A stretch of DNA of 63,984 nucleotides, the filler included, from Reticulomyxa filosa (taxonomy: Eukaryota > Protista > Foraminifera): the NCBI GenBank assembly GCA_000512085.1. It is 18 parts of 18 records of this genome, joined end to end, with 100 filler letters (N's around TTAATTAATTAA, not from the genome) between each part and the next. Parts side by side here need not be neighbours in the genome. Positions count along the whole stretch, not along the records: positions 1 to 11,846 come from ASPP01012863.1; 17 more parts are not named here. One strand, 5' to 3'. This document shows positions 1 to 40,387 of the stretch, one piece after another. Every line of letters starts with the position of its first letter. Within the stretch, counting starts at the first letter, position 1. Below the pieces are notes generated by a model. The model did not search any database. It was not told the origin of the DNA and saw only the letters and a program-made list of their open reading frames with translations. The position numbers and the translations under genes were made by a program.

Positions 1-45
1 GGGGGGGGAACATTGCAATAAAAGGCGTTTGACATTAGCAAACAA

Positions 46-1394
46 GTGCTGAAAACACAATTACGAGAAGACAGCTTGGCTCAAAATGAAAGTCAAAAGT
101 TTCGATTGCTGCCCGAGGACAAGTCGCATGACGTGGTACTGTTTCCAGTTGCCGGCAACGGTGGCGACTCGAGCGCGGCGGTGTCGCCGCATCTCGAATT
201 GACGAACGCGTTTTCGGCCATTGGTAGTAAGCCCAATGTACTGAAAGACTACAGTCCAAAGAAGAGCTTGCGTCTGTTCAGCCATCCTCCAGACCCTTGG
301 GTAGGACGCTATGTGGACATCTTTCAATTGATACAATTGATCCAAGACCCACAAAACAAGTTCACAATTGTGTTTGGAGATAAAGGCATTGGCAAATCTG
401 CACTGGTGAATCGCACATTCGAGTATTTATGGGAACGACAAAAGTTTGACGGAGTGTTTGTCATTGACGTGTACCAAAGGTTGCGAGAGAACCCGCGAAG
501 TAGCGTCGCGGAGATTATAAGTGACCATTTGCGTGAAGTATACGTAGTTATGAAAAAATGTTGCACGAATTCAGAATTGACGAAAGAGTTGAGAGACAGC
601 AACTACTTGCTTTGTATTGAAAACATTGACGCATATTCCGTGAAGCATTTATCGATTGCACAACGAATTGACGAGTGTCTGTATCATATCAATGAACGGA
701 CCAATGTGCGTGTAGTGGTAACCATGGACACGACTTTGCAGCAGGAGCATCTGCCTTTGCTTCAACGTATCCCCCGTAGCACGATGAAATTGAAACCCAT
801 GTCGGAAGAGGAAATGATTCAGCTCTTTTGGCTGCAAATGCAAAAAACCCATAACAAAACATTGCTCAAAAAACTCAGCGCCGAAAAGATTCAAAAGTTG
901 ATTCGTGATTGCAAAGGCATCCCCGAAATTGTCAATCACGCCGTCTTGCTGTGTACACAACAAGACATTGCCGATGACAAAGATGGACAGCTGATCAACT
1001 TCATCAAACACGTGCATAATAAAGTCCTCGAGCACAAACACACCTTACTTCATCATCGCTACTATCTCCCCTTCGTCATTGGCACTTTGGACGTCGGCCA
1101 AATCCGATCCAAAATACACGACTCCAGCGCGAGGGACTTTTGGGTGGAACACTTCAAGTTCAATTCTTTTGGGGATTGGCCTACCATTGCCCAATTTATT
1201 AAACAAAGATACAAACAAAAAGTAGGGGCCAAATTCGCCAAAATTCGCCCATTGCGAATTGATTCACCTGACAGTTTCGAATATGAGTTTATCATGGAAG
1301 AGTTGTTCCAGCATTTTGCAACTGAAGCCCGAGTTTTTTTCACATTACAAACAAAAGGACATTAATAGATCTTTGTGTCTTTTTATAAGGCGAG

Positions 1395-1430
<36 letters not shown>

Positions 1431-2497
1431 AAAAAAAAGGGACAAAATTCTATGTTATGTATTTGTATACAAATATATAAATATATATACGTATACGTAT
1501 ACACGTATAATATATATGTATACTTAAGGTTTTTAATCATTGCAAGTTACCATGTTTGTTAAAATAAAATAAAAAATAAAAACAGGTCGAATTTGAATAT
1601 CATCACCAAGACTTTCTCATGCAAGCAAAAAGTAAGGAGAAAGAAAAAACAACACCGGGGTCCTTTTTGAAATGGTTCCCGTTTGATTCCGTGAAACGCC
1701 TGGTTTCATCTCAATCCCATTCCCAGTCTCAATCTCGGCCTCAATCCCAATCCCAGTCGACAAATTCGCGCCCTTACTTGTATAGTCAACGTAGTCGCTG
1801 GAACTCGGTGGACGACCCCAATGACAACGACTGGAGCGAGTACTCGAAGGACGACCGCACATGCTCGACGCTCGAAAGCGAGTCGAAAACGTATAATGCG
1901 AGCATGGCAAATAACTCTTTGACCAATGCCAATGACTTTACTGCCGACAGTGGACACAACGATTCCATCGACCCTTTCACTTCCAACCCTAGCTCGAATT
2001 CGAACCACGGCATACCTATTGAAGTGTTTGGATTGTTTGTTGATTATTTCGACAGTTTGTTGGAATGCATTTTATTACCACAAATTGCACCCTATTATTT
2101 TCGAACAAACCCTGTGCTAATCTTTGGCATGATTTCGTCCACGAGGGCCATGGATTACGTTAGCGGCAAAAAACAAGGAACCAATACAAAGCCTGGAACG
2201 TGCTTATTTCGGTTCAGTCGGAAAAAGGGGTCCGCATTGGTCTTGGTTTGCGCCCATCAAAAAGAGGATCAATCTTTGCATACCGCACAGCACAAAATTG
2301 AACTTGTCAAATCCAAAGACAAAGTACTGTTTGAAATCTTTCAATCCGATGCCAACGTTTTGGAAGATTCCTTGTACAGCATCGTCCGCAATATGAAAGA
2401 GTTTCAATCACTCTTTTATTTTAATGCCAAAGGAAAACCCGACGTTGTGCCAAAAAGCAAAGTCTTGGATCTTTTGCGACCTCACAATATTAGGTGA
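46..2497 (+). CDS. STAND (NB-ARC-like) P-loop NTPase fused to C-terminal EF-hand-like + SH2 module; probably 5'-partial; intron 1333-1585
   Basis: Walker A GDKGIGKS preceded by PWVGR, FDGVFVID, Walker B LLCIENID, and CKGIP (GxP) motif. A GT at 1333 and CAG at 1583-1585 join ...EAR|VEFEY... in phase 0 into ORF 1619-2497. The C-terminus has FGMISSTRAMDYV...PGTCLFRFS (SH2 signature). Confidence 0.75.
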
Positions 2498-2949
2498 CCC
2501 TCCTTTGTGGATTGCTTAGCATATCTTCTTTTTTTCCCTCCCCCCCTCACTCCTTTCCTTTTTCTTGCCATGTTTGTGAGTCTGGCGAGATTTTTATTTT
2601 GTTTTGTTTTTTCCTGTTTTCAATGCTGATTTTTTTTTCACTTTTGCTTTGCCTTGTGCACCGTTTTTCTTTTGGTTTTTTTCTTCGAACAAATAACCTT
2701 TGCTGGTATTGCTGAATTTTGTATCAATGTTAACTGTTGCGCCTCCGAGTATTTGAATGTTTCACATTTTTCTGAATAACCAAAACGCCGATCTATCACT
2801 ATCATTCTTTCTGTAAAAGTTCTGTCTTCTATGCTTAAAGATGTTTTTTACTTTTGAGTGAATTGGTCACTATAATTTACTGTCGAAAGTGGAACTAACA
2901 GTACAAAGAATTACAAGGGACAATCTTTTTTTTTGAAAGAAAATTTGCC

Positions 2950-5427
2950 ATGGCTGAATTGCGCATAGTGGTGTTGAGGGCTATTTACTTTTGGAATGCC
3001 TGCGCTTTGGGGGTTTTGATCCGCTTTCTTGTCGTCTTTTTGAAAGAGATAGATTATACGCCAGGACAGATTGGTATTTTGGTGGCATTGCGACCAGGGG
3101 TAGGATTCTTTGGAGCAGTATTTTGGGGATTTGTGGGTGATTACACAAACAGGCGATTGACAGTACTATTGCTTGGGTCATTGATATCGAGTCTTTGTTA
3201 TACATTGCTACTTGCGGAAGTGATCCAAAGAAACTTTTGGTATGTATTTGCAGTGATAGCGGTGGCGTGTTTTTTTGGAGCAAGCTTGAGTCTATTGGAT
3301 GCAATATGTCTGACATTTTTGGCAGATCCCTCATCGAAACAACAAAATAGTGAGAAAGACAAGAATGAGTCCACATATGAACACGTCAGTATTCATCAAG
3401 AAAAAAGTAATCATGATTTTGCTGACAAAGCAAAAACGTGCAACGACAAGTCCGAACGAGAACAAAGCTATGATCAAGAAGGAAGAGATGACGATGAAGA
3501 ATTGAAAACAAGTAATGGAAAAAATGAGTCAAGTCGTTATGGAGAAACTCGAATGTGGGCAGCCATAGGTTGGGGTTTAGGTGCAGTGATGTGTGGTTTT
3601 TTGGTGAAACTATATGATAAGGATTTGATAATATTATTTTATGATGTTTGTGTTGTATTGCAATGGGTGATACTGCTATGTCTGCTGCCAATATTCATAC
3701 GGAGGAATAAAAGAAACAATAGACCACGCCATGAAGAAGATGGCAGCAGTGATGGAAACAAACCAATTCCACCAAAAAAAAAACCTTCCAAATTTTTATT
3801 TCTTTTTTCCAGAAAATTGCGTGAGGACTTAACCTCGACTCTAATTTCAACTCAGCCTGATGCTTCTGGTCACTCGAAGCCTAATGTGCACACAAATAAT
3901 GACACTGTGGTCCCCCATGTGCAACAGCAGCGTCAATCGTCCTTTGTACCTCAAACAACCTCCACTGCGACTGATGTGCAAAAGAATAGCACCCGTAAAA
4001 GTCTGTCTCACGACATTACGTATTCCAAAACGGTGGAACTCAGTCCAATGAACACCTATGTCAATCCCAACACTTCTTTGTCACGTGATGACACTTTTTT
4101 TTCTTCTTTATCTGAATTCGATTCTGGGGCGGCATCCAACGATTTTGACATGTCGCGTAAACATTTGTTGAAAGGTACTTTTTTTTTTTTTTTTTCTCCC
4201 GTCCTCCTCCCTCCCTCCCTCCCTTTCAACATTTATAAAATTCAATTGGTTATTGTTGTCGATGGATTTTTTATTTTTATTTTTTGATACGTATACAAAA
4301 ATGTGCCACGGGGTTAGTGTTTTGCAATGTGGCTTGCAACATCCATGCAATGGTATTTTTTTTAAATTTATTCTTGTTCGGCGTGGCCATGTCATTTGTG
4401 GAGCAATACTTGTTCCTGTTTTTGTTGGACAAGTTCAATGCTTCTTATGTGCTGTGCGGATTGACCATTTTTTCCATGGTGTTTGTTGGAGAAACACCTG
4501 TTTTTTATTACAGTCATAAACTGCTTCAGACCATTGGCATTTCTGGTTTGTGTATTTTTTTTTATTTTTTTTTTTACTATTTTTATTTCAATTTAAACTT
4601 CCTTGCCTATTTTGCTTGTGTCTGAACGTACGCTTCAATGCGTTCACAAATCTCATGTACTGTTTGCCATTCAACATGTATGCAAGCAAGTGGAAGAAAA
4701 ATTCGTACATTAAACAAACAATAATACAAAAAAGGGCTAATGGCATTGGCCCATTTGGCGTACGCTGTTCGTGTGTATGGGTATACGTTGATTCCTGAAA
4801 CAAGCCGTGATGCTTGGTTTATTTTGTTGTTGGAGCCATTGCATGGACTTACTTTTGCAGGTTTTGTGTGTGTCTTTGTTGGCAAAAATAACGTGAATAT
4901 CTTTTATTTGTTGCTTTTTGCTAATATCTGACTCCACCTCTGTGTATTCACTGCTAAGGTTGTTGGATTGCCTGTGTCCAATACGGCTCCATTTTGGTAC
5001 CTTCATATTTGCAGGGAACGATACAAGGAGTCATCAACGGGACATGGAGCGGTAAGCCATTGCATTACGTATATGATTTCTTTTTTTGTGTGTTGTCTGT
5101 AGGACAAAAGACATTGTTTTTATCTTGCTTCAAATGCATAATTTTAAAATTAACATATGGGTAAACAATTTTTAAAAAAAAGGTTTAGCGGACTGTATTG
5201 GTGCGATTGCAGGAGGATACATTTATGAACACTATGGGCCAGTGTGGATGTATCGTATAAGCGGTGGAGTCATAATGGTATGGATGATTGTTTTTCAGAT
5301 CTTGTTTCAATGCACAAAAAAATATCACCACTATTCGGACACTTCTGATCATGACGATGTCCCAGATCATAGCAAGACACAAAAGATATCTCCCAGTTTT
5401 AGTGACGAAAACAAAGAAACAACGTAA
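2950..5427 (+). CDS. Major facilitator superfamily transporter (MFS_1-like/MFSD6 type), multi-exon
   Basis: FWGFVGDYTNRR, SLLDAI, YGETRMWAAIGWG, GETPVFYYS and LLEPLHGLTFA motifs. Many TM helices, long hydrophilic loops and several GT-AG introns (first donor about 4175). Confidence 0.85.
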
Positions 5428-6867
5428 ACTAAATAATATATTGAATAAAGTAAAGGCCCCTACCTTCCAGCTGCTGAAGGAACAGTAAAAAGGTGCACTT
5501 CTGCTACACCATAAATATTCACAATAGTCTTTCCACCCTTTCTTTGCTTTAAAATCGTGTTTTGGTATTCTTAGTTATTTGTATGTAATTCTGTTATTGC
5601 GTTTTAGCAACATATCAAATGATGGAAATAATTAACACTGGAGAACTCACATAAATTATTGCTTCTTTTTCAACAAAGATTCTAATTATTTGTCATAAAG
5701 TTGCAAAAGTTTTTCAAACTATTTCAAGCAAGTACTTCTCCTTTTTCGTTGCATTTAGAAATTATTTGATGACTACTTTTTAAAACGAGTAAAATTTATA
5801 CAGTTCGTGATTCTCACAAAGTAATTGCTACAAACAGAAAGAGTGTCTTCATTCGAAACATGTTTCTTTCTAAAATCAATCATAACATCTAGTGACTAAA
5901 AGAGCTAAAAAACAGCATATAAACCTGCGCTAGGCTAAAATAAGAGCTTTTAACACTAGCTACCACAACACTCAATCACGCTGCATCTTGCATGGCAATT
6001 GCATTACATAATAAGATACTAAGCGCATATCAACATGCTAACGCTGGCAGTACCATATCATTTCACAGTCAGTGCCTCTTCTTACAAAGGATTAAATCAG
6101 TTTTTCCAATTGCTAAGCAAATACAATACATTCTAACAAAATTTTTTAAAAAATATGAAAAAGAAAACAGTTGCGTCCAAAGCGTTGTAAATTATTTCTT
6201 GCAATTATATTTACTAGAAGTGGTACCTTAACTTGGCAGTAATTTTCGAACTGTATACAACATATATAACCAAGTTTGTAGTGAACTTTTACTAGTAGAC
6301 GTCAACTGACATTCATGGCCATAGTGTTAGCAAATGTCTTCTAATTTGTAATACATGATTTATCAATTTAAGTTTTGTCTTGTGTATCGTGATTTACTTT
6401 TTAATTTAATTTAATTTTTTTTTATTGAAAGTTCATTCTGTAACGACTCTTTCACATTACATTTAATACCATTCATCCTACAGTTCCAATATCTATTTTT
6501 TTAATTTTTTATTGCTATGACAATATTTCAATTTTGCTTTTACAACTGCAGTTGCTTTTCTTGGTAGTTATATATTTTTTATTCATAATTACAAAACATT
6601 TTCGATATTTTCTTTGTATAAAGTTTTACTAAAGTGATTTTGTTTTGTGATTGCATTGAATAATATCATTTTATATGATTTTAATAATTAAGAAAAATAC
6701 AAAAAAGTGAAATACAAAAAGTACATCTTCAAAACTTTTTTATTTTAGCACTGTACTTGGGTACACAAGTTTGGCCAGAGCTCTTTTTCGCGGTTCAAAC
6801 TCCTCAAAAATTTTATTTCTCTTCAATTAAAAGTTAGAAATTCTTTGTGATCTATTTGGTTGAGAAA

Positions 6868-7338
6868 ATGTCTTTGGTGGCCTTAAAATTAACAGAAAAA
6901 GATAATCAATTAAAACTTCCAGTGTATTCTGCCGCAGTAGTAAGTGGACTTCACTTGCTGTTGGCAGTACGAATGTCATTTTTTAGAATTGAACATCGCT
7001 TGAGAAAAGATGATGGAAAATTAGATGAAGATTTTTATTCAAGTGATGCCTTTAAAGTGGCCAGTCGAACCCAATTAAATCATGCTGAATATAGTGGTGT
7101 TTTTGTTGCATTATTATTGTATTTGCAAGCACGAGCTGATAAAACCCAAAATCTGACCACCACCGCTAAGGTAGCATGCTTATTGACAACCATTGGTTCT
7201 GTTATATTCACCATTGGTTTTGCTACGGTTGAAAATCTCTCGAAAACCAATAAACTCAAATTAATTGGCGCAACTACTCGATACGCTGGTTTTGCTGCGT
7301 TGGTATTGAGTGTTCTTCAAGCTGGATTGCAACAATGA
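6868..7338 (+). CDS. MAPEG family membrane protein
   Basis: About 155 aa with four hydrophobic helices. RTQLNHAEY matches the MAPEG R-x-H/Q-x-N-x-x-E motif. Confidence 0.75.
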   Translation: MSLVALKLTEKDNQLKLPVYSAAVVSGLHLLLAVRMSFFRIEHRLRKDDGKLDEDFYSSDAFKVASRTQLNHAEYSGVFVALLLYLQARADKTQNLTTTAKVACLLTTIGSVIFTIGFATVENLSKTNKLKLIGATTRYAGFAALVLSVLQAGLQQ

Positions 7339-8919
7339 GACTGTACAAAGTATATTCACGGATAATTATGAGCGTCTGTTTTCTGGTAAACATTAAACTG
7401 CTATTTTTCCCTTAACTTGCTTTTTGTTGTTGCTTTAATGCATTTGTTATAATTAATCTTATTTTTCAAAAAAATTGTCGTAATTCAATACTCTACATAT
7501 CTAGTCGATCACAATAAAAGAGGGAAAAAATATGTTTTCTATTTGTTGCTTCTTTGAACGAAGTTTTGAAGCAAAGATAGCAAAACTAATAATGAGAGCT
7601 CTCACTGTGCCAAATTCTGGGACAAAGATAAAGAAAGAACTGATGGAACGATTTTAGGTTTGAGTTAAGTTTAGTACTCCTTATACGAAATATTGGTTAA
7701 AAAAAAGATGAAAAATCAAATCAAAATGACAAGGTAGAAAAGAAAGTGAAAGCAGGAGTACAATAATATCATTCAAGCATATGAAAAGTTGGCAGAAATT
7801 TCTGAACGGAACCGAACGACCAAAAAAAGCAAAGAAATTTGATATCTCAAAGCTTCCTTAGTTCCTTATTTTTTTTCGAACAAAAAAAATATAAATGAAT
7901 TGTTAATCTGGTTTTGTCAAATAGCGTTGAAAATATAATATTTTGGAGAAAAGTATGATGGATTTGTGCCGCAACAGTCAATGCAAAATAGCATAAAATT
8001 CCACTTATTTTTGGCATTAGAAAAAGCACAATTCACAGTCGATGAAAAATCATGCAATTACAGTCACTGTAATCGTACAGATAAAGATATATCATCCAAG
8101 AAAAGAAAAAAACCAAGAAAAAAGTAATACTAAAGTAAATCCAAAGAAAAGAAATTATTTTGATTGTGTGAAAACATCCAAAGACGTTTGTGTAATCAAT
8201 CCAATGTTTTGTTTGATTACAAGTGTTACGATATGAATATTTATTGTTCGATGTGTGCGCAATAATAGTATAGGCTCATGAGAAAAATAATATCAGTAAC
8301 CACACGAATATCTTGTGTAAACTATTGTTGGCAATGCTTTCAAATTTGATATGTTGTTTTTTCTTTATTGGATATCGAGCAAGTCACATAAAAATCTCAA
8401 TATCAAATGGCTCATTTGTTGCCTTTGATTTTATATAATTGCGTGTTTGGTCCATCTCTGATTAGGCTTGTACCCGATAATTTTAATGGAATTAAAATAT
8501 TTGAAGCACTCACCCGATGCCAGGGAATACTGGGTAAGATACTTTTTGTAAACCTTAAACGAGATGCTACTTCAATATCAATGAATTTTTATGTTTTTCT
8601 GCTCACTTGCTTCCCAAAGAACAAACATTTGTTGGAAGATGACAGTTAAATAAAATGCTGATACTCACTAATAATCCTTTTGCTGTCGATATAAAACTTC
8701 ACAAAAATTTGATAACCAAAAGTCCTTTCCCCAAAAGATTGCTTAATATTTGGTGTTAGCTTACAAGTCTTGCACTGTCTATCCGTTTTACTTTAAAAAA
8801 AGGAACCTATAGAAAAAAAATAAAATTAGAGCCCATCTTTCAGCTCATGACTTCCAAAAAAATAAAAATGATCACCGAGCTCAGCACAATAGCAAACAGT
8901 TTAATTTATCAACAAATTT

Positions 8920-11385
8920 GTGGAACATAATAAAACTCTGTTATTGCTTGACAGGTTGAGAGAAAATCGTGAGACAACAATCGCTCGAGAAATGGGTTTA
9001 TTTATATTATGGAACATTTTGAGTGAGCCAAATAATACCCGCTATCGCAAAATTAGCAACGAAAGGCTAAGCAATGTTTTGCAAAAAAAATGTCGCCGAA
9101 AGCGTGCAGATTATTCCATTGTCGTACAAGAATGTGTTGCTTATTTGTATGAATTTGGATTTAACGAAGAAATTGACAAGAATTGGTACAATTACAAACC
9201 AGTAAATATCATACGATTATGGAATTGGTACAAAGACCTAATAACAAAGCGGCTAAAGTATAATATATTTATATCATTGTCAAGCAGATGAATAATTATT
9301 CTGTTTTCTGACAAATAGCTATGCTTTGGTTTTTATATTTTGATCTGTTAGATATCAATCACAACAATATCCTATCCCCAAAACGGTATTGGTACTGCAG
9401 AAAGAGAAATGGAAACAGTGTGAAGCTGTATTTGATCATGATACTCGAAGAATTGCGCTGTTGGATGTAAAAAGTGAAAACTTGACAGTTGAAACATTGC
9501 AAGTTGGAGACTCAAATAAAAAAGAATTTGAATTCGATATAAGCATCCAATGGAATACTGATTTATCTGAAGCCGAAAAAATGGAGAACAAATGGCGTAT
9601 TGTCATTCTCAACAATCGTTGGAAGTTTCGTGTACTGACAACGTACGAAAGAGAGTGCTTATGCAAAGTATTATCAGTTATGGATATGCTTGCAATAGAA
9701 TATATACATATATATGTTTTTGTTTGTGTGTGCGTGGCAAATTAATTTGAAACTTATCAAAATATTTAACAACCAAACTATTAAAGGATTTCAATTCTTT
9801 TCGTATTGCATGGAAAGTCAACTCGAATAGGACAAATTATCTGCCATTGAACCCTTATACCACGACTTTGGAGCAAGTTTTTAAACAGTTGAAAGAACAA
9901 CTGCCAATATACGAAAGCATTGCATCGGAAGTTGATGAGTTAATTGCATTAAGATGTGAATATACAAAATGCGTGCCGCCAATTCCATCAAATGTAAGCA
10001 CTAAAGTACTATTAAATGATATTTACAAAGACGTTCGTCATTATCCACAAATTGAAGTCATGTGGGTAATACAATGCTGTTTCCTGGTTCCTTATGACCG
10101 TACATATTCTTTTGGCAATGATAGGTTTTCAAAAACTGTCAAAAAAGAATTACCATCATTAGAATTGACAAACGAAAAAATTCAATTTAATCCCTTTTTG
10201 TCGGAAAGTGATCAAAACAAAATTGAAGGAACTTATCCCTTGATGACTCACATTTCTCTTCAGTTTGAAACATCAAATACAGACACTCTGAAAGATCTAT
10301 TACACGAAGTAATCAAAAATGGTTTTTTGAGAGATTTGATAAATAATGAATCAAAAGATTTTGATGAAGGCAAAATTAAAGAAATAATTTCTTTCAATCA
10401 AACACAAAGCCGTCAACTGATATTAAATCCTGAAGTATTGACTATATTAAAACGAATCAAACATGTATATCACTTTAACTTTCATAAACGTCTGGGATAT
10501 CCTCTTGATATACACAAAATTTGTGCATTACTATTATACTGTGAAAAATCTTGTTCTTATCAATTTAAAAAGGATCAATTTGCTTTCAACTACAATAAAT
10601 GGATATATTTTGATCGATTTTTATGTGAAGCCATAATGACTTTGTCAAAGCATGAAAGAAGAGAAGAATGTGATGCAGAATTATATTATGGATTGAATTC
10701 AGTCAAATTCACTAATATTGAACAACAAATCAAACCAGGATATTTCATCGGTACTATTAGCACATATGACGATTTGAGGATAGCGCAGTCACATCGAGGC
10801 GATAGAGGATGTATTCTGGAATTTCATCCATCAATGCGACGGGCATTTCATATTTTCAGCTGTGATATATCGTGGTTATTTTCAAACAAACCTCAACATG
10901 AGATTCTCTTTGCAAGAACTTATGATTTTAATATTCACAAGAAATCACTCCCAGAATCAATATCATGGAATGTGAGCATTAAAAGTGAAACAGAAAATAT
11001 GCAAGTAGTATTGCTGACATGGGCAATATATGACAAATTTATCAACCAAACATTACAAATCAGCAAAATATTGAACAGCGGCATTGACTTTAATTTAATC
11101 TATATTGGACTTGCTCATATTGGCAGAGACTCCGAAAAAGCGAAGGAGTTGGTGACAAAATTTGAACAGTGGAGGACACGAGATAATAATGAAAAAGGTC
11201 ACAAGGATTTGATGTACAAGTTCTATCAGTATCGCGCTCGTAATGACGACGTCAATTTATTTTGCATTTTTCTTGATAATACAGGTGAATTACGACATCT
11301 TGGAATTAATTCCCTTGAGTTTGCAATTTATTTGACAATTTTTAATGGTCTGCCATTTGTTGAGAAAGACAAAACAAACACATAA
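8920..11385 (+). CDS. PUB-like domain + ADP-ribosyltransferase (ART)-fold protein; introns 9258-9351 and 9677-9786; start codon uncertain
   Basis: N-terminal LWNILSEPNNTRYRKIS...FGF (PUB-like). C-terminal LYYGL / ISTYDDLRIAQSH / GCILEF / CDISWLFS..QHEILF reproduces the ART motif order. Both GT-AG introns join the three ORFs in frame. Confidence 0.7.
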
Positions 11386-11846
11386 TAAATATTTTTAGAC
11401 ATAAAGAAAAACAACAAAACCTTGTTATGAATCAACTTATTCTTTTAGCTGCATACATTTTCTCTGCTATGTTTTTGACAGTAATTCATGAAAAAATTTT
11501 GGTGATGTTTCACCTTGATTTGTAAGTTTTTTGATAACTCCAGTTTTTTACAAAAGACAACGATTAGATTTTTCAATATAGTACAAACTTTTTTCGATTT
11601 AAAGATTAACTAATAGTTTTTTGGTAAAAAAAATTATACAAACCTTGTTTTTACCTAACCAGAACAACACAAATAATTTGATTATAAAACAAAATTTAGA
11701 TTCCTCTTTCCAATAGTATCGTACCATTTAAGCTAAATACACTACATCGAAGAAATAACACAAAAGGGATTATGCATCGGAGCAATCGTTACGCATTTTT
11801 TAAATTTACAATATACTCACAAGATGATAAATACATATTACTACAA

Positions 11847-11946
11847 NNNNNNNNNNNNNNNNNNNNNNNNNNNNNNNNNNNNNNNNNNNNTTAATTAATT
11901 AANNNNNNNNNNNNNNNNNNNNNNNNNNNNNNNNNNNNNNNNNNNN
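11847..11946. other. Artificial contig-joining linker N44-TTAATTAATTAA-N44. Further copies start at 14558, 16731, 18929, 21569, 22825, 25034, 27227, 31846, 34685, 35885, 38839, 42709, 44093, 45465, 54311 and 60784
   Basis: An identical 100-bp block occurs 17 times, and the 12-mer gives stops in all six frames. Confidence 0.98.
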
Positions 11947-18444: not shown

Positions 18445-18928
18445 ATTAATTAATTAATTAATTAATTATGGAAACAATAGAAAACCGCAGAAGAAACCAA
18501 TGATTTAAAAAACGATGAGAAACAAAAAGAAGACGATAAAGGCCAAAATAAGAAGAATAAGAATAAAAATCAAAACAAAAACAAAAAACTAGACCCACCA
18601 CAAAAGAAGAAAGACTCGCAAGGTGAGAAGGATGCTAACAACCCATCCGAAACCCAAACACAAGAAAATGACAAAGACAGCAAAGAGACGTCTTATCTCT
18701 CATTATCACTCCCAAACAAAATGCCGAGCATCTGGCTCTATTTACCGAAGTCGTCCAAGCGTGCAAAGAACTGACTGCACTCATCACTCAACATATCAAA
18801 CCATTTGCCCACTTGGGACATGCTGATCCACCAGGTTGAGTTTGTTTGTATTGGATGAAATGATATATTATCATACATTAAAAAAAAAATTATAAAAAAA
18901 AAAAAAAAAAGGGTTTGATTCCCGTATA
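17244..18928 (+). CDS. NAA35: N-alpha-acetyltransferase 35, NatC auxiliary subunit (Mak10), 3'-partial, multi-exon
   Basis: WYNVTEQF...LAPGELV...|SCLEIGEKADPG, LIGTMDEM..LWSFFSG...TFTCLYLH and ASVNEEEDW match the Mak10 family motifs. Confidence 0.85.
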
Positions 18929-27326: not shown

Positions 27327-29790
27327 TATGTTGGTACACCCGTTGGTGAAGCAGTACGTTGGTCTTGTGTTGGAGAACCCGTTGGTGAATAAGTTATGCT
27401 CCGACAATCACTGACCGATGCTCCAACGAGTCAATGTTGGAGCGTTTGTTGGTGCATCAGTTGGAGAAAAGGTTGACGAGTATGTTGGAGCGCATGTGGA
27501 GATAGTTGTAGATGTTGGTGAGAACTTTGATGCATCGTTGGCGAATATGTTGGAGAAAAAGTTGGCGACTGTGCGGATGCATTGGTTGGTGATAAGTTGG
27601 TGAGTACGTGGGCGTATTAGAGCGCTCGTTGGTGAATATGTTGAAGGTCGCTTTATGTTGGTGTCAGTTGGGGAATGCTGGAGAAAACGTTGGCGCACCC
27701 GTTGGAGTATGTTGGTGATTGCGTTGGTTGGCGACTAGCGCATTCGTTGGTGAGTTGTCGGACTAATGTTGAAGCTACTGTTGGGGAATAGATTGGGAAG
27801 GTGGCGCGTCCGTTGGGACATTCATTGGCGAATAAGTGGGACTGAACGCTGGTGCATCAGTTGATGGATATGTTGGAGCACCCGTTGGTGAAAAGTTGGT
27901 GATTACGGACAATGTTGGGGGGCATTCGTTGGACAGGATGTCGGACTGTATGTAGGACTATATGTTGGTGAATATATCGGGCTGAACGTGGGTGCGTTTG
28001 TTGGACTGTCCGTTGGTGCGCTTGTCGGGCTGTAAGTGGGACTATAAGTTGGACTTTCCGTTGATTATTTGTTGGACTATACGTCGGGTTCGACGTCGGT
28101 GGATATGTTGGTGAATACGTCGGACTGAAAGTAGGAGTGTTTGTTGGACTTGGCGTTGGACTGTAAGTAGAAGCATTGGTTGGGCTTGGTGTTGGGCTGT
28201 CCGTTGGACTGAAAGTAGGTGCGTTCGTTGGATTATAAGTCGGATTGCTCGGCGGACTGTAAGTTGGATTGTTCGTTGGACTGAAAGAGGGTGCATTCGT
28301 CGGGCTATATGTTGGATTGGCTGTTGACTGTAGGTTGGCGCATTTGTTGGGCTATAAGTAGAAGCGTTTGTCGGGCTGTAAGTTGGAGCGTTTGTTGAGA
28401 ATATGTTGGCGCATTTGTTGGATTTGGTGTTGGGCTGTTTGTTGGACTTTCGGTCGACTATAGGTTGGGCTGTATGTTGGAGCGTTTGTTGGGCTCTCCA
28501 TTGAACTCTATGTTGGGCTGTAGGTCGGGGCACCTGTTGGAGAGTAAGTTGGAGCATTTGTTGGACCATAATTCGGACTGTATGTTGGAGCATTGGTTGG
28601 GTTTGGAGTCGGACTGTTTGTTGGACTAAAGTCGGGCTCTCCGTTGGGCTGTATGTCGGACTATAAGTCGGGCTATATGTCGGACTGTCGGTTGGAGAGT
28701 AAGTTGGAGCACCAGTTGGCGAGTATGTTGGGGAAGGTGTTGGAGAATAGGTTGGACTATTCGTTGGTGATGGAGTCGGTGAGTCAGTTGGAGCATCAGT
28801 TGGAGAATATGTCGGTGAGTACGATGGAGAATACGTTGGAGCGCCTGTTGGTGAGCCAGTTGGAGAAAATGTTGGCGAGTAAGTTGGTGACTGTGTTGGA
28901 GCATTCGTCGGTGACTCCGTTGGAGCGTTTGTTGGGGCGTTTGTTGGATAATAAGTTGGACTGTACGTTGGGGCGCCAGTTGGTGAAAAAGTCGGTGAAT
29001 AAGTTGATTGTTCGTGGGAGAGAAAGTTGGACTATAAGTCTGGCTATCCGTCGGTGAATGTGTTGGTGAGTTGGTCGGAGAGTACGTTGGACTGTACGTT
29101 GGAGCGCCAGTTAGTGAATACGTTGGAGAAAGTCGGACGTCTGTTGGTGATTGTGTCGGAGCGCTTGTTGGAGCACTAGCTGGGGAATAGGTTGGACTGA
29201 ATGTTGGAGCGCCTGTTGGAGAATACGTTGGCGAGTATGTTGGAGAAAATGTTGGTGCATCCGTTGGCGGGTAAGTAGTGGAATACGTTGGTGACTGTGT
29301 TGGCGCGTTAGTTGGTGACTCCGTTGGCGCATCTGTCTCTCCAACATATTCACAACTTTTTCACCGAATGTTGGTGCGCCCGTTGGCGAATATGTTGGAG
29401 AAAAATTTGGCGACTGCGTTGGTGCATTTGTTGGTGACTCTGTTGGGGCATTTGTTGGTGAATAAGTTGGACTGATGTCGGAGCATCAGTCGGTGAATAT
29501 GTTGGGGCCCCGTTGGGGAATAGGTTGGATAGAAGGTCGGGCTTTGTGTTGGGGCATCCGTTGGTGACTCCGTTGGAGAATAAGTTGGCGAGTGTGTCGG
29601 ATTAATGTTGGAGCTCCTGTTGGGGAATAGGTTGGAGAGAAGTTGGGGAAAACGTGGCGAAATGTTGGAGCGCTCGTTGGGGAATACGTTGGCGAATATG
29701 TCGGACTGAACGTCGGAGATTTCGTTGGAGAAAATGTTGGACGAATGTTGGTGGAACGTTGGGCATTATTTGGTGACGTGTCGGCGCGCT
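27327..29790 (-). repeat. Degenerate 12-bp-period coding repeat (gttgg every ~12 nt = xxPT tetrapeptides)
   Basis: Well over a hundred gttgg/gtcgg cores at about 12-nt spacing. Confidence 0.9.
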
Positions 29791-34820: not shown

Positions 34821-35884
34821 TCAGAAGTCCGCAGAAAGCGAGACCAGTATCGTGCGCGGCGCGCCCATGGCCAGGCCGAACAGGGAGTTGGCCGACTCCC
34901 AGTAGTTGTTGTTGCCAACGTTCAGGACATTGAGCCTGGCGCTGAGCGGCCGGCCCTGCACCTCGAAGCCGTAGCGTGCGCCGACGTCGAAGCGGACCCA
35001 GCTGGGGATCTGCTGGGTGTTGGCGTTGTCGTAGTATTGTGCGCTGGTGTAGATCGTGCGGCCAGTCAGGGTGAGACCGCGCACCCAGGGCGTATCCCAT
35101 TCCAGGCCGACATTGATCTGCACGTCAGGCACGCCCGTGGCGACCTTGCCGTCGGTGAGAGCACTGCCGGTCTTCTGCAGGCGCCCCTGCAGGAAGGTCA
35201 CACCCCCCAGCACGCGTACCGCGTCGGTCAGCAACCCCATCGCATTCAGCTCGATGCCGCGATTGCGCTGCTCGCCGTCCGCCGTGAAGGTGTTGGTCGC
35301 CGTGTTGGCGATACCGCTGGGCTGGGTGATCTGGAACAGCGCGAGCGTCGTGATCAGGCGCCCCCAGTCGACCTTGGCGCCGACCTCGAACTGGTTCGAC
35401 ACGAAGGGTGGCAGGACCTGGCCCCCGTTGGCAAAGTTCGTGGGAACGATGCTGCCCGGCTGCAGGCCCTGCATGTAGCTTCCATAGAAGGAGACGTTCT
35501 CCCACGGCTTGAAGAGCACGCCGACAGCCGGCGTCAGCGCGCCGCTGGAATAGCTGCCGGTCCGTGCGCCCGTGACGTTGCTGTAGTTGTTGCTCTCGAT
35601 CTGCTGCTGGCGCAGCCCCCAGATCAACTGCACGCGGTCGTCCGCTCCCGACATCGTGTGGCCGAAACCGTAGCTGTAGGCAAGGGAATCGCTGGCGCGG
35701 TTGGGATTGAGGAACGGGACGTTGGGCGCCGCGACGAAGGTCGGCTTGTATATGTTGGAAGTGACGGTCGTCAGCGTCGGATACTGGTTCGACGTGACCG
35801 TGAACTGCCGGTTGGCGATCAGCGACACCTGATGGTGGATCGGCCCGGTGTCGAAGCGCCCGCGTATCCCGACCTCTTCGCTAT
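34821..35884 (-). CDS. Bacterial TonB-dependent (ferrisiderophore-type) outer-membrane receptor, C-terminal beta-barrel, 5'-truncated
   Basis: High GC and no introns. Motifs include SFYGSYMQGL, QFEVGAKVD, GEQRNRGIELN, RFDVGARY, NVGNNNYW, GAPRT and a C-terminal aromatic residue (SADF). Confidence 0.95.
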
Positions 35885-38952: not shown

Positions 38953-40387
38953 TTGCGTGCAGAAATCGAGTTTGATGAGAGATTTGGCGCACGCGACAAT
39001 CTAAGTTGTGTACACATGTTACAATTCGGATACCCGTTGAGCACGACGGACACGAGCACAGGGAAGGAACATCGTATGCAAGTGGACGCGAGCGACGCGA
39101 AAGAGAACGTGAACGCGATGGCGTACCTGACGAAGATTGCCAGCGTGGACTACCGCGAGCGCTGCTCATCGTTGCAGAACCAGTGTGTGCAGGCGTTAAC
39201 ATTGCGAAAGACCGAGCAGCGACTAAGTGGTGGGCCTTGGATAATGGATGCGAACATTAATATTAATGTCAATGCCAATACTAATGTCAATACTAATGCC
39301 AATGTTAGTTTAGGTATCGATAGCAGTGGTGACAGCACATCGATGATGGACCAGATCGAGAGTGATTTCAACGACTTGATTTGGAGCTTGCCGAAGCAGC
39401 AAGATCTAAAGACTGCTATTCGACAGCTCAACGCGAACCACTTGACAGGCCTGCCTAATCGAATTGCATTTCGCACGTGGTACGAAGCAGAGATGAAGAT
39501 GCGCATGTCCATGCATGTAAATGCAAGTAATGGAGATGGTGACGACGAGGATGATAGCGATGATAATAAGAATGACAATAATAATGACAATAATAATAAT
39601 AATAATAATAACAATAATAATGTACAAACAATTGTGGCTAAAAAAAAAGAGCAATTCAAAAACGGCCATTTGGCATAATCAATATGAACATTTGCAACTT
39701 GGCTCTTTTGAACGAGGTGGTAACACATCAGGTGGTGGACCAGATAATAATCCGCATCGCGAACATCTTGCGAACGGGCGTGGATGCGAACGCGGCAATT
39801 TCGCGCTGTTCATTGTACCACTGGAACGCGGGCGAGTTTGTAATCGTGATGCTGGTGGACCAGGAGCAAGAGCTGCTGCATTTCGCCAAGTTATTGATCC
39901 AAACGATTTCGACGCAGCAGGAATATATCAAGACGTCGATTCCGCCCATTTTACAGAACAAGATCGGTCTGTCAGTGCTTACTGTATGCGCGGGGTGCGC
40001 GATTCACTCGGAGCGCATGGACTTTGGACAATGGATCGCCGACGCCGACCACGCCTTGGAGGTGGCCAAGCGACAGGGTCCTGGCAGCATTGTCAGCGCA
40101 TCTAACATCGACGTGAAGAAGGAGACACTAGCTTTGTTCAAAGGGATTCAGGACGAGTATCCGTCCATCGGACATATCTTGGAGCACATTCGCAATGGCG
40201 CCGATCTCGACGAGGTCGACCGCTTTGGCAACACCGCTCTCGCGTCTGCTCTCAAGATGGACAAGAACAAACGTCCACTCGTGCAAACACTGACATATCA
40301 GCCCTTCAATCCCAAGCTGCAGGACAAGCTTGGCAATACGCATTTGATGAAAGGTTTTTTTTTTTAAAAAAAAGAACTGAACTTTTT

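Follow-up and report, generated by a model that had tools for sequence, protein, structure and literature searches.

Results

Two reading frames open a Reticulomyxa filosa scaffold

The window analyzed here is a 63,984-nucleotide stretch of DNA from the freshwater foraminifer Reticulomyxa filosa (GenBank assembly GCA_000512085.1). Its first scaffold (ASPP01012863.1) spans positions 1–11846, and the gene studied here opens this scaffold, at its very start. Two open reading frames (ORFs) make up the locus. ORF1 is in frame 1 (46..1365, plus strand) and closes with a TAA at 1363–1365. ORF2 is in frame 2 (1619..2497, plus strand), running from an ATG at 1619 to a TGA at 2495–2497. The best explanation of the sequence is that bases 22–2497 are the last two exons of one R. 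filosa gene, with a predicted junction between them. The product is, with high probability, a NACHT-type STAND NTPase in which an SH2 fold, with a split EF-hand-like unit predicted to pack on it, replaces the repeat sensor. The analysis covers one species with a fragmentary assembly and uses sequence and structural models. The features of the gene are given below, where P0002 to P0007 denote paralogs and pLDDT the predicted local distance difference test score.

25..1332, plus strand: exon A, an open frame that covers the linker before NACHT, the NTPase itself, a helical stretch and the EF1-like block
364..828, plus strand: NACHT domain (Pfam PF05729; E value 1.4e-6, 28.7 bits, cut-off 26.7), residues 107–261 of the ORF from 46
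376–399, plus strand: Walker A motif (P-loop) GDKGIGKS, intact and conserved in P0004 and P0007
607–630, plus strand: Walker-B-like strand LLCIENID, with Glu and Asp, placed by eye
886–894, plus strand: GIP within CKGIPEIV; CKG[IVN]PE is kept in P0003, P0005 and P0007
1108..1332, plus strand: EF1-like helical block (SARDFWVEHF...FATEAR), assigned from a weak Cbl_N2 match, conservation and predicted packing
1333..1585, plus strand: predicted intron of 253 nt, GT (1333–1334) to AG (1584–1585), AT-rich
1586..2497, plus strand: exon B, including the TGA stop at 2495–2497
1586..2008, plus strand: low-complexity linker with much Ser, Asn, Asp and Gln, probably disordered (composition; model pLDDT 25–33)
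1892–1894, plus strand: Tyr of KTYNAS, in alignment with the one linker Tyr that each of three paralogs has, 39 residues before the EF-like/SH2 module
2009..2113, plus strand: EF2-like helix region (GIPIEVFGLFVDYFDSLLECILLPQIAPYYFRTNP), assigned from 62–85% paralog identity and a predicted interface
2114..2494, plus strand: SH2-fold domain, assigned from an AlphaFold2 model, Foldseek, VIA-align and ESM Atlas
2210–2212, plus strand: Arg of CLFRFS at the site of the phosphate-binding beta-B5 Arg (FLVR motif), invariant in 4/4 family sequences
1..24, plus strand: scaffold start; an upstream intron probably ends here, at an A-rich ...AATAAAAG acceptor (AG 23–24)

Protein matches of both ORFs are confined to R. 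filosa, with E values from 1e-42 to 1e-106, a sequence likeness that far exceeds chance. ORF2 is 100% identical to a 292-amino-acid (aa) database protein, P0001, which is the public gene model of the locus. It is also 46–48% identical to RFI_29692 (P0002) and RFI_12626 (P0003), and these three were the matches among 632 candidates. ORF1 is 56–63% identical to RFI_08826 (P0004), RFI_15200 (P0005) and RFI_33111 (P0006), the three matches among 2774 candidates. A further search with 3364 candidates returned one match, RFI_09927 (P0007, 873 aa), which is 41% identical over 97% of the ORF1 length. Identity over exon A is 64% for P0004, 57% for P0005 and 42% for P0007.

Conservation differs along the protein. 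Paralog identity is 55–74% in the EF1-like block, 62–85% in the EF2-like region, 46–67% in the NACHT core, 35–52% in the SH2 part and 20–25% in the linker. By this sequence measure, and independent of any model, the two EF-like helical blocks are the best-conserved parts of the protein. Nearly all relatives are partial because the assembly is so fragmented, with 50,809 scaffolds and an N50 of 3.6 kb (table in PMC13746701). Pattern searches for related loci gave 591 matches in metagenome contigs and, with the NACHT core as query, 31 in prokaryote genomes; none was confirmed in either set. The NACHT-SH2 architecture has so far been seen in one species, R. filosa.

A predicted intron joins the two frames

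The first-pass annotation of this DNA had proposed that position 1332 is spliced in frame to 1586. The two ends do join in frame. ORF2's frame is open from 1580 only, and the first AG within it is that at 1584–1585. We enumerated six GT donors (1222–1333) against seven AG acceptors (1585–1643). Twelve GT..AG pairs gave a stop-free, in-frame product, and the 1333/1585 pair alone keeps paralog-conserved residues on both sides (...HFATEAR on the left, VEFEYHHQDFL... on the right).

The paralogs place the junction at the same residues. The P0003 model reads ...HFAALAG into VEFESQRHF... across the homologous junction, the P0007 model reads ...DFAEEAR into VNFSSFL..., and the partial P0002 model starts precisely at the residue homologous to 1586 (VDLPS...). 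All three therefore resume with V[EDN][FL].., as at 1586. In the partial P0005 model, similarity gives way to junk (poly-Phe/Pro followed by a Tyr-Ile-Leu-Val run) right after ...HFADEAG, the residue homologous to 1332, as would be expected if the model continues into the same intron. The proposed join is supported by the splice enumeration, the paralog fusions and the predicted packing of the two halves described below.

R. filosa genes have about two introns each, with a mean length of 87 bp, as given in PMC13746701. The predicted intron is longer than this mean. Its acceptor is A-rich (...AAAACAG), similar in style to the probable acceptor at 23–24. A 36-nt poly-G run, followed by poly-A, lies within the intron at 1394–1429. 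Mis-assembly at this run, joining unrelated ORFs, was considered and rejected because the paralogs have the same order and junction.

Alternatively, the locus could hold two genes, a STAND NTPase that ends at the TAA at 1363–1365 and a separate 292-aa SH2 protein that starts at the ATG at 1619, possibly with its promoter in the AT-rich spacer. Each ORF does have its own stop and ORF2 has an ATG, and the database model P0001 is exactly the 292-aa ORF2 product. However, paralog similarity reaches back past that ATG to the AG at 1584–1585. The 11 codons in between (1586–1618) are open and paralog-similar, and they are therefore probably conserved coding sequence, which would make the public ORF2 model truncated. 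On the other side, similarity of ORF1 to its paralogs ends at the GT at 1333. The gene models of P0003 and P0007 continue from STAND into SH2 sequence and are annotated as fusions. In addition, the helical block of exon A, among the best-conserved parts, is predicted to fold together with the exon-B module into a single unit. Two separate genes are very improbable.

Exon A encodes a NACHT-type core

ORF1 passes the Pfam cut-off for NACHT by a narrow margin (28.7 versus 26.7 bits). Paralogs P0004 and P0007 score 37.3 and 31.9 bits with the same profile. Scores for nSTAND1, AAA_16 and ATPase_2 in ORF1 fall slightly under their Pfam cut-offs. The core had initially been described as NB-ARC-like. 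A STAND core with the quoted motifs is indeed present, but Pfam assigns it to NACHT; NB-ARC reaches 18.7–23.4 bits, under its cut-off, and that label was dropped.

The Walker A motif, the Walker-B-like strand, GIP and ARDFWVEHF (from 1099) all lie where they had been reported. GDKGIGKS fits the Walker A pattern GxxxxGK[ST], and each of the four family members covering the Walker-B-like strand retains its IE[ND][IV]D. GIP stands where STAND helical domains would have their GxP motif. The distance from GIP to the EF-like block is only about 70 residues, and a full winged-helix domain may therefore be missing.

LRR, WD40, TPR and ankyrin repeats gave no Pfam match in ORF1, ORF2 or the paralogs. 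By sequence, the protein is thus NLR-like in layout only and is not an NLR in the strict sense of NACHT or NB-ARC with LRRs. A PDB sequence search with ORF1 returned nothing beyond P-loop-level matches. NCBIfam and PADLOC likewise gave P-loop-level matches only, far below their cut-offs.

Exon B encodes a predicted SH2 fold

Exon B holds IPIEVFGLFVDYF from 2012 and FGMISSTRAMDYV...PGTCLFRFS. An SH2 domain with a retained phosphotyrosine-binding Arg had been proposed here, and the C-terminus was checked for this fold with AlphaFold2 and structure searches. Positions 1997–2494 were modeled from a 4-row alignment. Residues 1–62 of the module fall below a pLDDT of 50, 47 residues lie at 70–90, and 10-residue block means across residues 61–160 are roughly 54–80. 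The model contains a helix (48–56), strands at 68–74, 80–88 and 94–106, short strands, a helix (126–132), two strands and a final helix (153–160). This order of elements is that of SH2 domains.

Structure searches with the model agree. Foldseek against PDB listed 47 rows, and all 47 are SH2 domains or SH2-containing entries (best E value 0.011, probability 1.00). They include a Dictyostelium STAT, and four titles carry no molecule name. VIA-align, which is independent of Foldseek, compared the model with 48,161 representative solved chains. Sixty chains reached Z of at least 5, and all 50 of the 50 listed rows are SH2 proteins (Z 7.5–5.6). SAP aligned at Z 7.5 with a root-mean-square deviation (rmsd) of 2.7 A over 95 residues. 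STAT1, second best among the listed rows, followed at Z 7.2 (rmsd 2.7 A over 95 residues, 19% identity). The weight of the VIA-align result for this model rests on the uniformity of the listed rows.

Embedding neighbors in ESM Atlas point the same way. The first-ranked cluster (score 0.90, 185 of 256 features shared) is mostly from plants, with SH2 on 37% of its members. Rank 3 is a STAT_linker-plus-SH2 cluster, and all 10 of the 10 best hits that have a family share one family. Together, the model and structure searches support an SH2 fold well.

Arg72 of the module, the invariant Arg at 2210–2212, lies within the first strand of the modeled sheet (68–74). A basic residue (Arg or Lys) in helix A is kept in 4/4 family sequences, and a His in the third strand (strand D) in 3/4. 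The beta-B5 Arg of the FLVR motif forms a salt bridge to the phosphotyrosine phosphate, according to PMC12470777. The same source describes STAT-type SH2 domains as lacking beta-E and beta-F. In our model, strands are predicted after strand D, and the domain may be of either the STAT or the Src type.

The P0003 protein was also modeled whole (451 aa, 6-row alignment), but its mean pLDDT was 41.6 and the model was not used. P0007 has an Ile/Tyr/Phe-rich insert at residues ~742–790 inside its SH2 part, just before the conserved Arg-Phe. This insert looks like an unspliced intron; if so, the SH2 of some members has an extra intron, unlike this copy.

A putative EF-hand-like unit split between the exons

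The EF-like unit would lie in two parts. The presumed second half, the EF2-like region (GIPIEVFGLFVDYF...), directly precedes the SH2 fold. Between it and the EF1-like half lie the intron and a disordered insert of 94–142 residues. In the EF1-like half, Cbl_N2 (PF02761) matches at 1111–1251 (E value 0.028, 15.5 bits, cut-off 22), covering profile positions 2–48 of 84. Sub-threshold matches also occur in P0005 (E value 0.025) and P0007 (E value 0.03), and all cover the first half of the profile.

We predicted the complex of 1081–1332 with 1997–2494 as separate chains, without family alignments. The ipSAE was 0.87 (runs 0.88, 0.78 and 0.87), compared with 0.01 for the best of three controls; this is a model score, not a measurement, and likeness to Cbl and STAT is the point under test in it. 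At least 56% of contacts agreed between runs, and partner pLDDT was at least 63. When the method was calibrated, 51 of 78 solved complexes attained the mark, as did 2 of 108 mismatched pairs. For eukaryotes, the corresponding figures were 39 of 65 solved pairs for which older structures include no like complex, and 2 of 126 unrelated pairs. The predicted interface places the DFW helix and the last exon-A helix against residues 4–26 of the exon-B piece. It also reaches the start of helix A and strand B of the SH2 fold.

As a prediction, this speaks for a single gene with one split EF-like/SH2 module. The proposal of an EF-hand is carried forward in part. The sub-threshold Cbl_N2 matches (E values 0.025–0.03) and the predicted packing point to it, but the Pfam cut-off is not reached, and we use the term EF-like for this reason.

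The linker carries a conserved tyrosine

The linker between the two halves is rich in Ser, Asn, Lys and Asp and varies in length in the family (94–142 aa). P0002, P0003 and P0007 each have exactly one linker Tyr, 27–42 residues before the module (IP[IV][ED] motif), in the family context [ST].Y[SDN].[ST]. This copy has five linker Tyr residues, of which one (1892–1894) aligns with the paralog Tyr. From this alignment, Tyr 1892–1894 is a candidate phospho-acceptor, which we infer.

A first conserved island in the linker (1625–1678) consists of a Lys-rich stretch and FLKWF, with FL[KRD]W[FL] in all four family members. This island could be a localization or membrane motif.

The missing 5' end and a CHAT-like domain in paralogs

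ORF1 has no ATG before the P-loop. Paralog similarity begins at base 22 (KAFDISKQVLKT...), and in tblastn, similarity to the C-terminal end of the paralog CHAT domain (G.T[IL]Q.AFD) extends to bases 1–4, across an in-frame TAA at 19–21. Bases 1–24 can be read in two ways. They may be the end of an intron with its acceptor at 23–24, the last few residues being similar by chance. Alternatively, the TAA may be a nonsense codon or a sequencing error at the scaffold end. The intron is the likelier of the two and the one we favor because the P0004 model becomes poly-Phe (poly-T), intron-like, at the same point, just upstream of the homologous KAFD. Under either reading, the N-terminal part of this copy lies beyond the scaffold start.

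The same bases bear on whether this is a decaying, non-functional copy of an expanded family, with its 5' part cut off or a nonsense codon near its start. Such a pseudogene could account for the in-frame TAA amid CHAT C-terminal similarity. The gene also abuts a scaffold end and holds a poly-G run, and several paralogs are partial. Yet 437 and 303 consecutive sense codons are open in DNA of about 40% GC, and the conserved motifs are all intact. Moreover, the ...AAAAG acceptor at 23–24 resembles that at 1585, and the P0004 model breaks intron-like at the same point, so the TAA is most simply intronic. We regard a pseudogene as improbable.

The scaffold starts with G8 (1–8). This homopolymer and the 36-nt poly-G run may mark short-read assembly breaks, which may explain the missing 5' part of the gene.

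A CHAT- or caspase-like effector had been suggested for the missing exons, and for the family the paralogs bear out a CHAT-like domain at the N-terminus. Pfam CHAT (PF12770) scores E value 9.3e-5 in P0006 (22.4 bits, cut-off 24) and 0.1 in P0007, and P0006 aligns to the solved CHAT chain 8tl0_A (E value 0.0065). Measured against 8tl0_A, however, the catalytic residues of P0006 are gone, Phe standing in for the His of GHG and Tyr for the Cys (residues 28–36 and 72–80). P0007 has Tyr and Ser at these sites (residues 16–24 and 62–70), read by eye in the family alignment. The CHAT-like domain of the paralogs is thus, by its sequence, probably catalytically dead, and a role as a protease effector is unlikely. 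Both models begin in the middle of the CHAT profile (~130 of 289), and upstream exons are probably missing from them as well.

Other genes in the window

An MFS_1_like transporter gene lies next on the same scaffold and strand (2950–4287, plus strand, E value 3.4e-26). The match is limited to its first ~130 residues and is followed by low-complexity sequence; further exons are likely. Beyond this scaffold, N runs around TTAATTAATTAA join the scaffolds. This string occurs 20 times, compared with 0.04 expected by chance, at 11847–11920 and 19 other sites (for example, 14602, 16775, 34729 and 60828). Three overlapping matches at 18446–18465 may be native sequence. The window is a chain of scaffolds, and therefore sequence past 11846 is no genomic context for the NACHT-SH2 gene.

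Other scaffolds in the window carry bacterial-type genes, among them a TonB-dependent receptor beta-barrel (34824–35828, minus strand, E value 7e-36) and a GGDEF domain (39684–40364, plus strand, E value 1.4e-7). These could come from contaminating or associated bacteria or from lateral transfer. Degenerate tandem repeats of 12, 24 and 36 nt, with a unit near GTTGGAGAATAA, fill 1.6 kb at 27987–29635. The GC skew there is very strong (0.43 over 28–30 kb), and the repeats may encode a repeat protein on the minus strand.

Discussion

A possible phosphotyrosine-controlled STAND switch

In animals, plants, fungi and bacteria, STAND/NLR proteins serve as the core switches for innate immunity and cell death. 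To our knowledge, nearly all of them sense through C-terminal repeats to which a ligand binds directly. STAND NTPases switch between a closed monomer and an oligomer, and the C-terminal module holds the closed form until a ligand binds. Our reading of the R. filosa protein, on the architecture described above, is that it is a nucleotide-driven oligomerization switch under phosphotyrosine control. We give this reading a rough probability of 0.55. Phosphotyrosine control itself, as a part of it, stands at or somewhat below even odds, and an immune role is purely conjectural.

By analogy with other STAND proteins, the SH2 module would keep the NTPase closed until ligand binding. The SH2 pocket would bind phosphotyrosine on a partner protein. 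Or, as in STATs, it could bind the conserved linker Tyr of the same or a neighboring protomer. Tyrosine phosphorylation would then open or bridge protomers and so release or promote NTP-dependent assembly. The upstream dead CHAT domains, brought together, might act as a scaffold or adaptor and not as a protease.

A number of observations weigh against this reading. For the SH2 fold, the overall AlphaFold2 confidence is low (mean pLDDT 54.9). Foldseek found no PDB match at E ≤ 0.001, and VIA-align found no Z of at least 8 among the 48,161 chains, where Z below 8 can reflect a common arrangement. The ESM "recognition" value of 2249 is under the 2300 mark. Pfam SH2 (PF00017), Cbl_N3 and STAT gave no match even at E up to 10, and PDB sequence searches with ORF2 and the family profile returned nothing relevant. 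For the EF-like unit, all Cbl_N2 matches are below the cut-off (15–16 versus 22 bits) and P0003 has none. In ESM Atlas, the EF1-like block has no EF-hand, Cbl or STAT neighbor, and its top score (0.86) is to unrelated clusters. The complex score may stem from model memory of solved Cbl and STAT structures, and would then indicate likeness, not binding. In the NTPase, the Walker B position has Glu in place of Asp. As for the gene itself, the public model P0001 is ORF2 alone from the ATG at 1619, and the in-frame TAA at 19–21 is one extra codon relative to P0006 and P0007. Finally, the CHAT dyad is absent in the paralogs, and therefore the logic of a sensor that activates a protease cannot apply as such.

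The ligand is where the same architecture allows a different reading. The SH2 fold may be no phosphotyrosine reader but a constitutive dimerization or autoinhibition module. It may also bind phospho-Ser/Thr or an unphosphorylated or acidic motif, with the STAND switch regulated otherwise. In the transcription factor Spt6, the SH2 domains recognize RNA polymerase II phosphorylated on Ser, Thr or Tyr, and some lineages that have no classical tyrosine kinases nonetheless possess SH2 folds. The domain in R. filosa is too divergent for the Pfam SH2 model, and literature pairing the genus with SH2 or tyrosine kinase gave no information on tyrosine kinases of R. filosa. Nevertheless, the FLVR-type Arg is invariant in all four sequences, at the position of the residue that binds the phosphotyrosine phosphate (PMC12470777). 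The basic residue of helix A (4/4) and the strand-D His (3/4) are also retained, and STAT-type and plant-type SH2 clusters are the closest ESM neighbors of the domain. A module that does not read phosphotyrosine is the less likely case in our judgment, and phosphotyrosine control remains part of the preferred reading.

Taken further, the family would be a foraminiferal NLR-like group with a Cbl/STAT-type EF-SH2 phosphotyrosine reader as its sensor and a dead caspase-like domain as its effector. Tyrosine phosphorylation, perhaps of its own linker Tyr, would drive oligomerization. We offer this fuller picture tentatively, as a possibility that falls short of even odds.

Novelty and meaning

Searches of the literature on NACHT or STAND with SH2 found no NACHT/STAND-SH2 protein, with the R. 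filosa genome paper (Curr Biol 2014) outside the comparison. No literature pairing Reticulomyxa filosa with NACHT was found. Among the matches listed for Rhizaria with NACHT or SH2 domain, none was relevant by title and abstract opening. We judge the STAND-SH2 architecture to be real and apparently undescribed. One source names P0007 only "NACHT domain-containing protein", and the SH2 part is invisible to Pfam; domain censuses therefore miss such proteins.

An SH2 fold at the sensor position would mean that a STAND switch reads a kinase cascade and not a direct ligand. If true, the protein would provide the first case of phosphotyrosine signaling coupled directly to an NLR-type switch. It would likewise count as evidence that SH2/phosphotyrosine signaling works in Rhizaria, which bears on where such signaling existed outside animals and amoebozoans.

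Comparison with known systems

CHAT-NACHT and CHAT-NB-ARC proteins with TPR, WD40 or LRR occur in bacteria and fungi, and Apaf-1 and the animal NLRs are the functional paradigm. The R. filosa protein resembles CHAT-STAND and NLR proteins in its NACHT P-loop core, which scores above the Pfam cut-off, and in its three-part layout. In paralogs P0006 and P0007, as in CHAT-STAND proteins, a CHAT-like domain lies N-terminal of the NTPase. It differs from both groups in having an EF-like/SH2 module and a disordered linker of 94–142 aa where the repeat sensor would stand. Unlike CHAT-STAND proteins, its paralogs have the CHAT His and Cys replaced (Phe/Tyr in P0006, Tyr/Ser in P0007).

The module itself recalls two other systems. 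The tyrosine-kinase-binding (TKB) domain of Cbl consists of a four-helix bundle, an EF-hand and an SH2 domain. As in Cbl, a helical block, here with a weak Cbl_N2 match, directly precedes the SH2 fold and, by prediction, packs against it. Unlike Cbl, the protein has no Cbl_N or Cbl_N3 Pfam match, no RING was seen, and it ends 10 to 15 residues after the SH2 fold. A long disordered insert and an intron divide its EF-like unit, and no canonical calcium loop is seen by eye. STATs, whether from animals, Dictyostelium or the plant STAT-type proteins, share with it a helical linker followed by an SH2 fold. In contrast to STATs, it has NACHT in place of the coiled-coil and DNA-binding domains, and its candidate Tyr lies upstream in the linker, with no Tyr tail past the SH2 fold. 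The protein is thus a member of neither the Cbl nor the STAT family.

Two further groups combine SH2 with immunity-type domains. Choanoflagellates have cytosolic TIR-SH2 proteins, as described in PMC6040629, and metazoan Death/TRADD-N proteins with a C-terminal SH2 are described in PMC8195603. Both groups belong to Holozoa, not Rhizaria, and have no STAND NTPase. Like them, the R. filosa protein would carry an SH2 domain attached to a domain of the innate-immunity or cell-death type.

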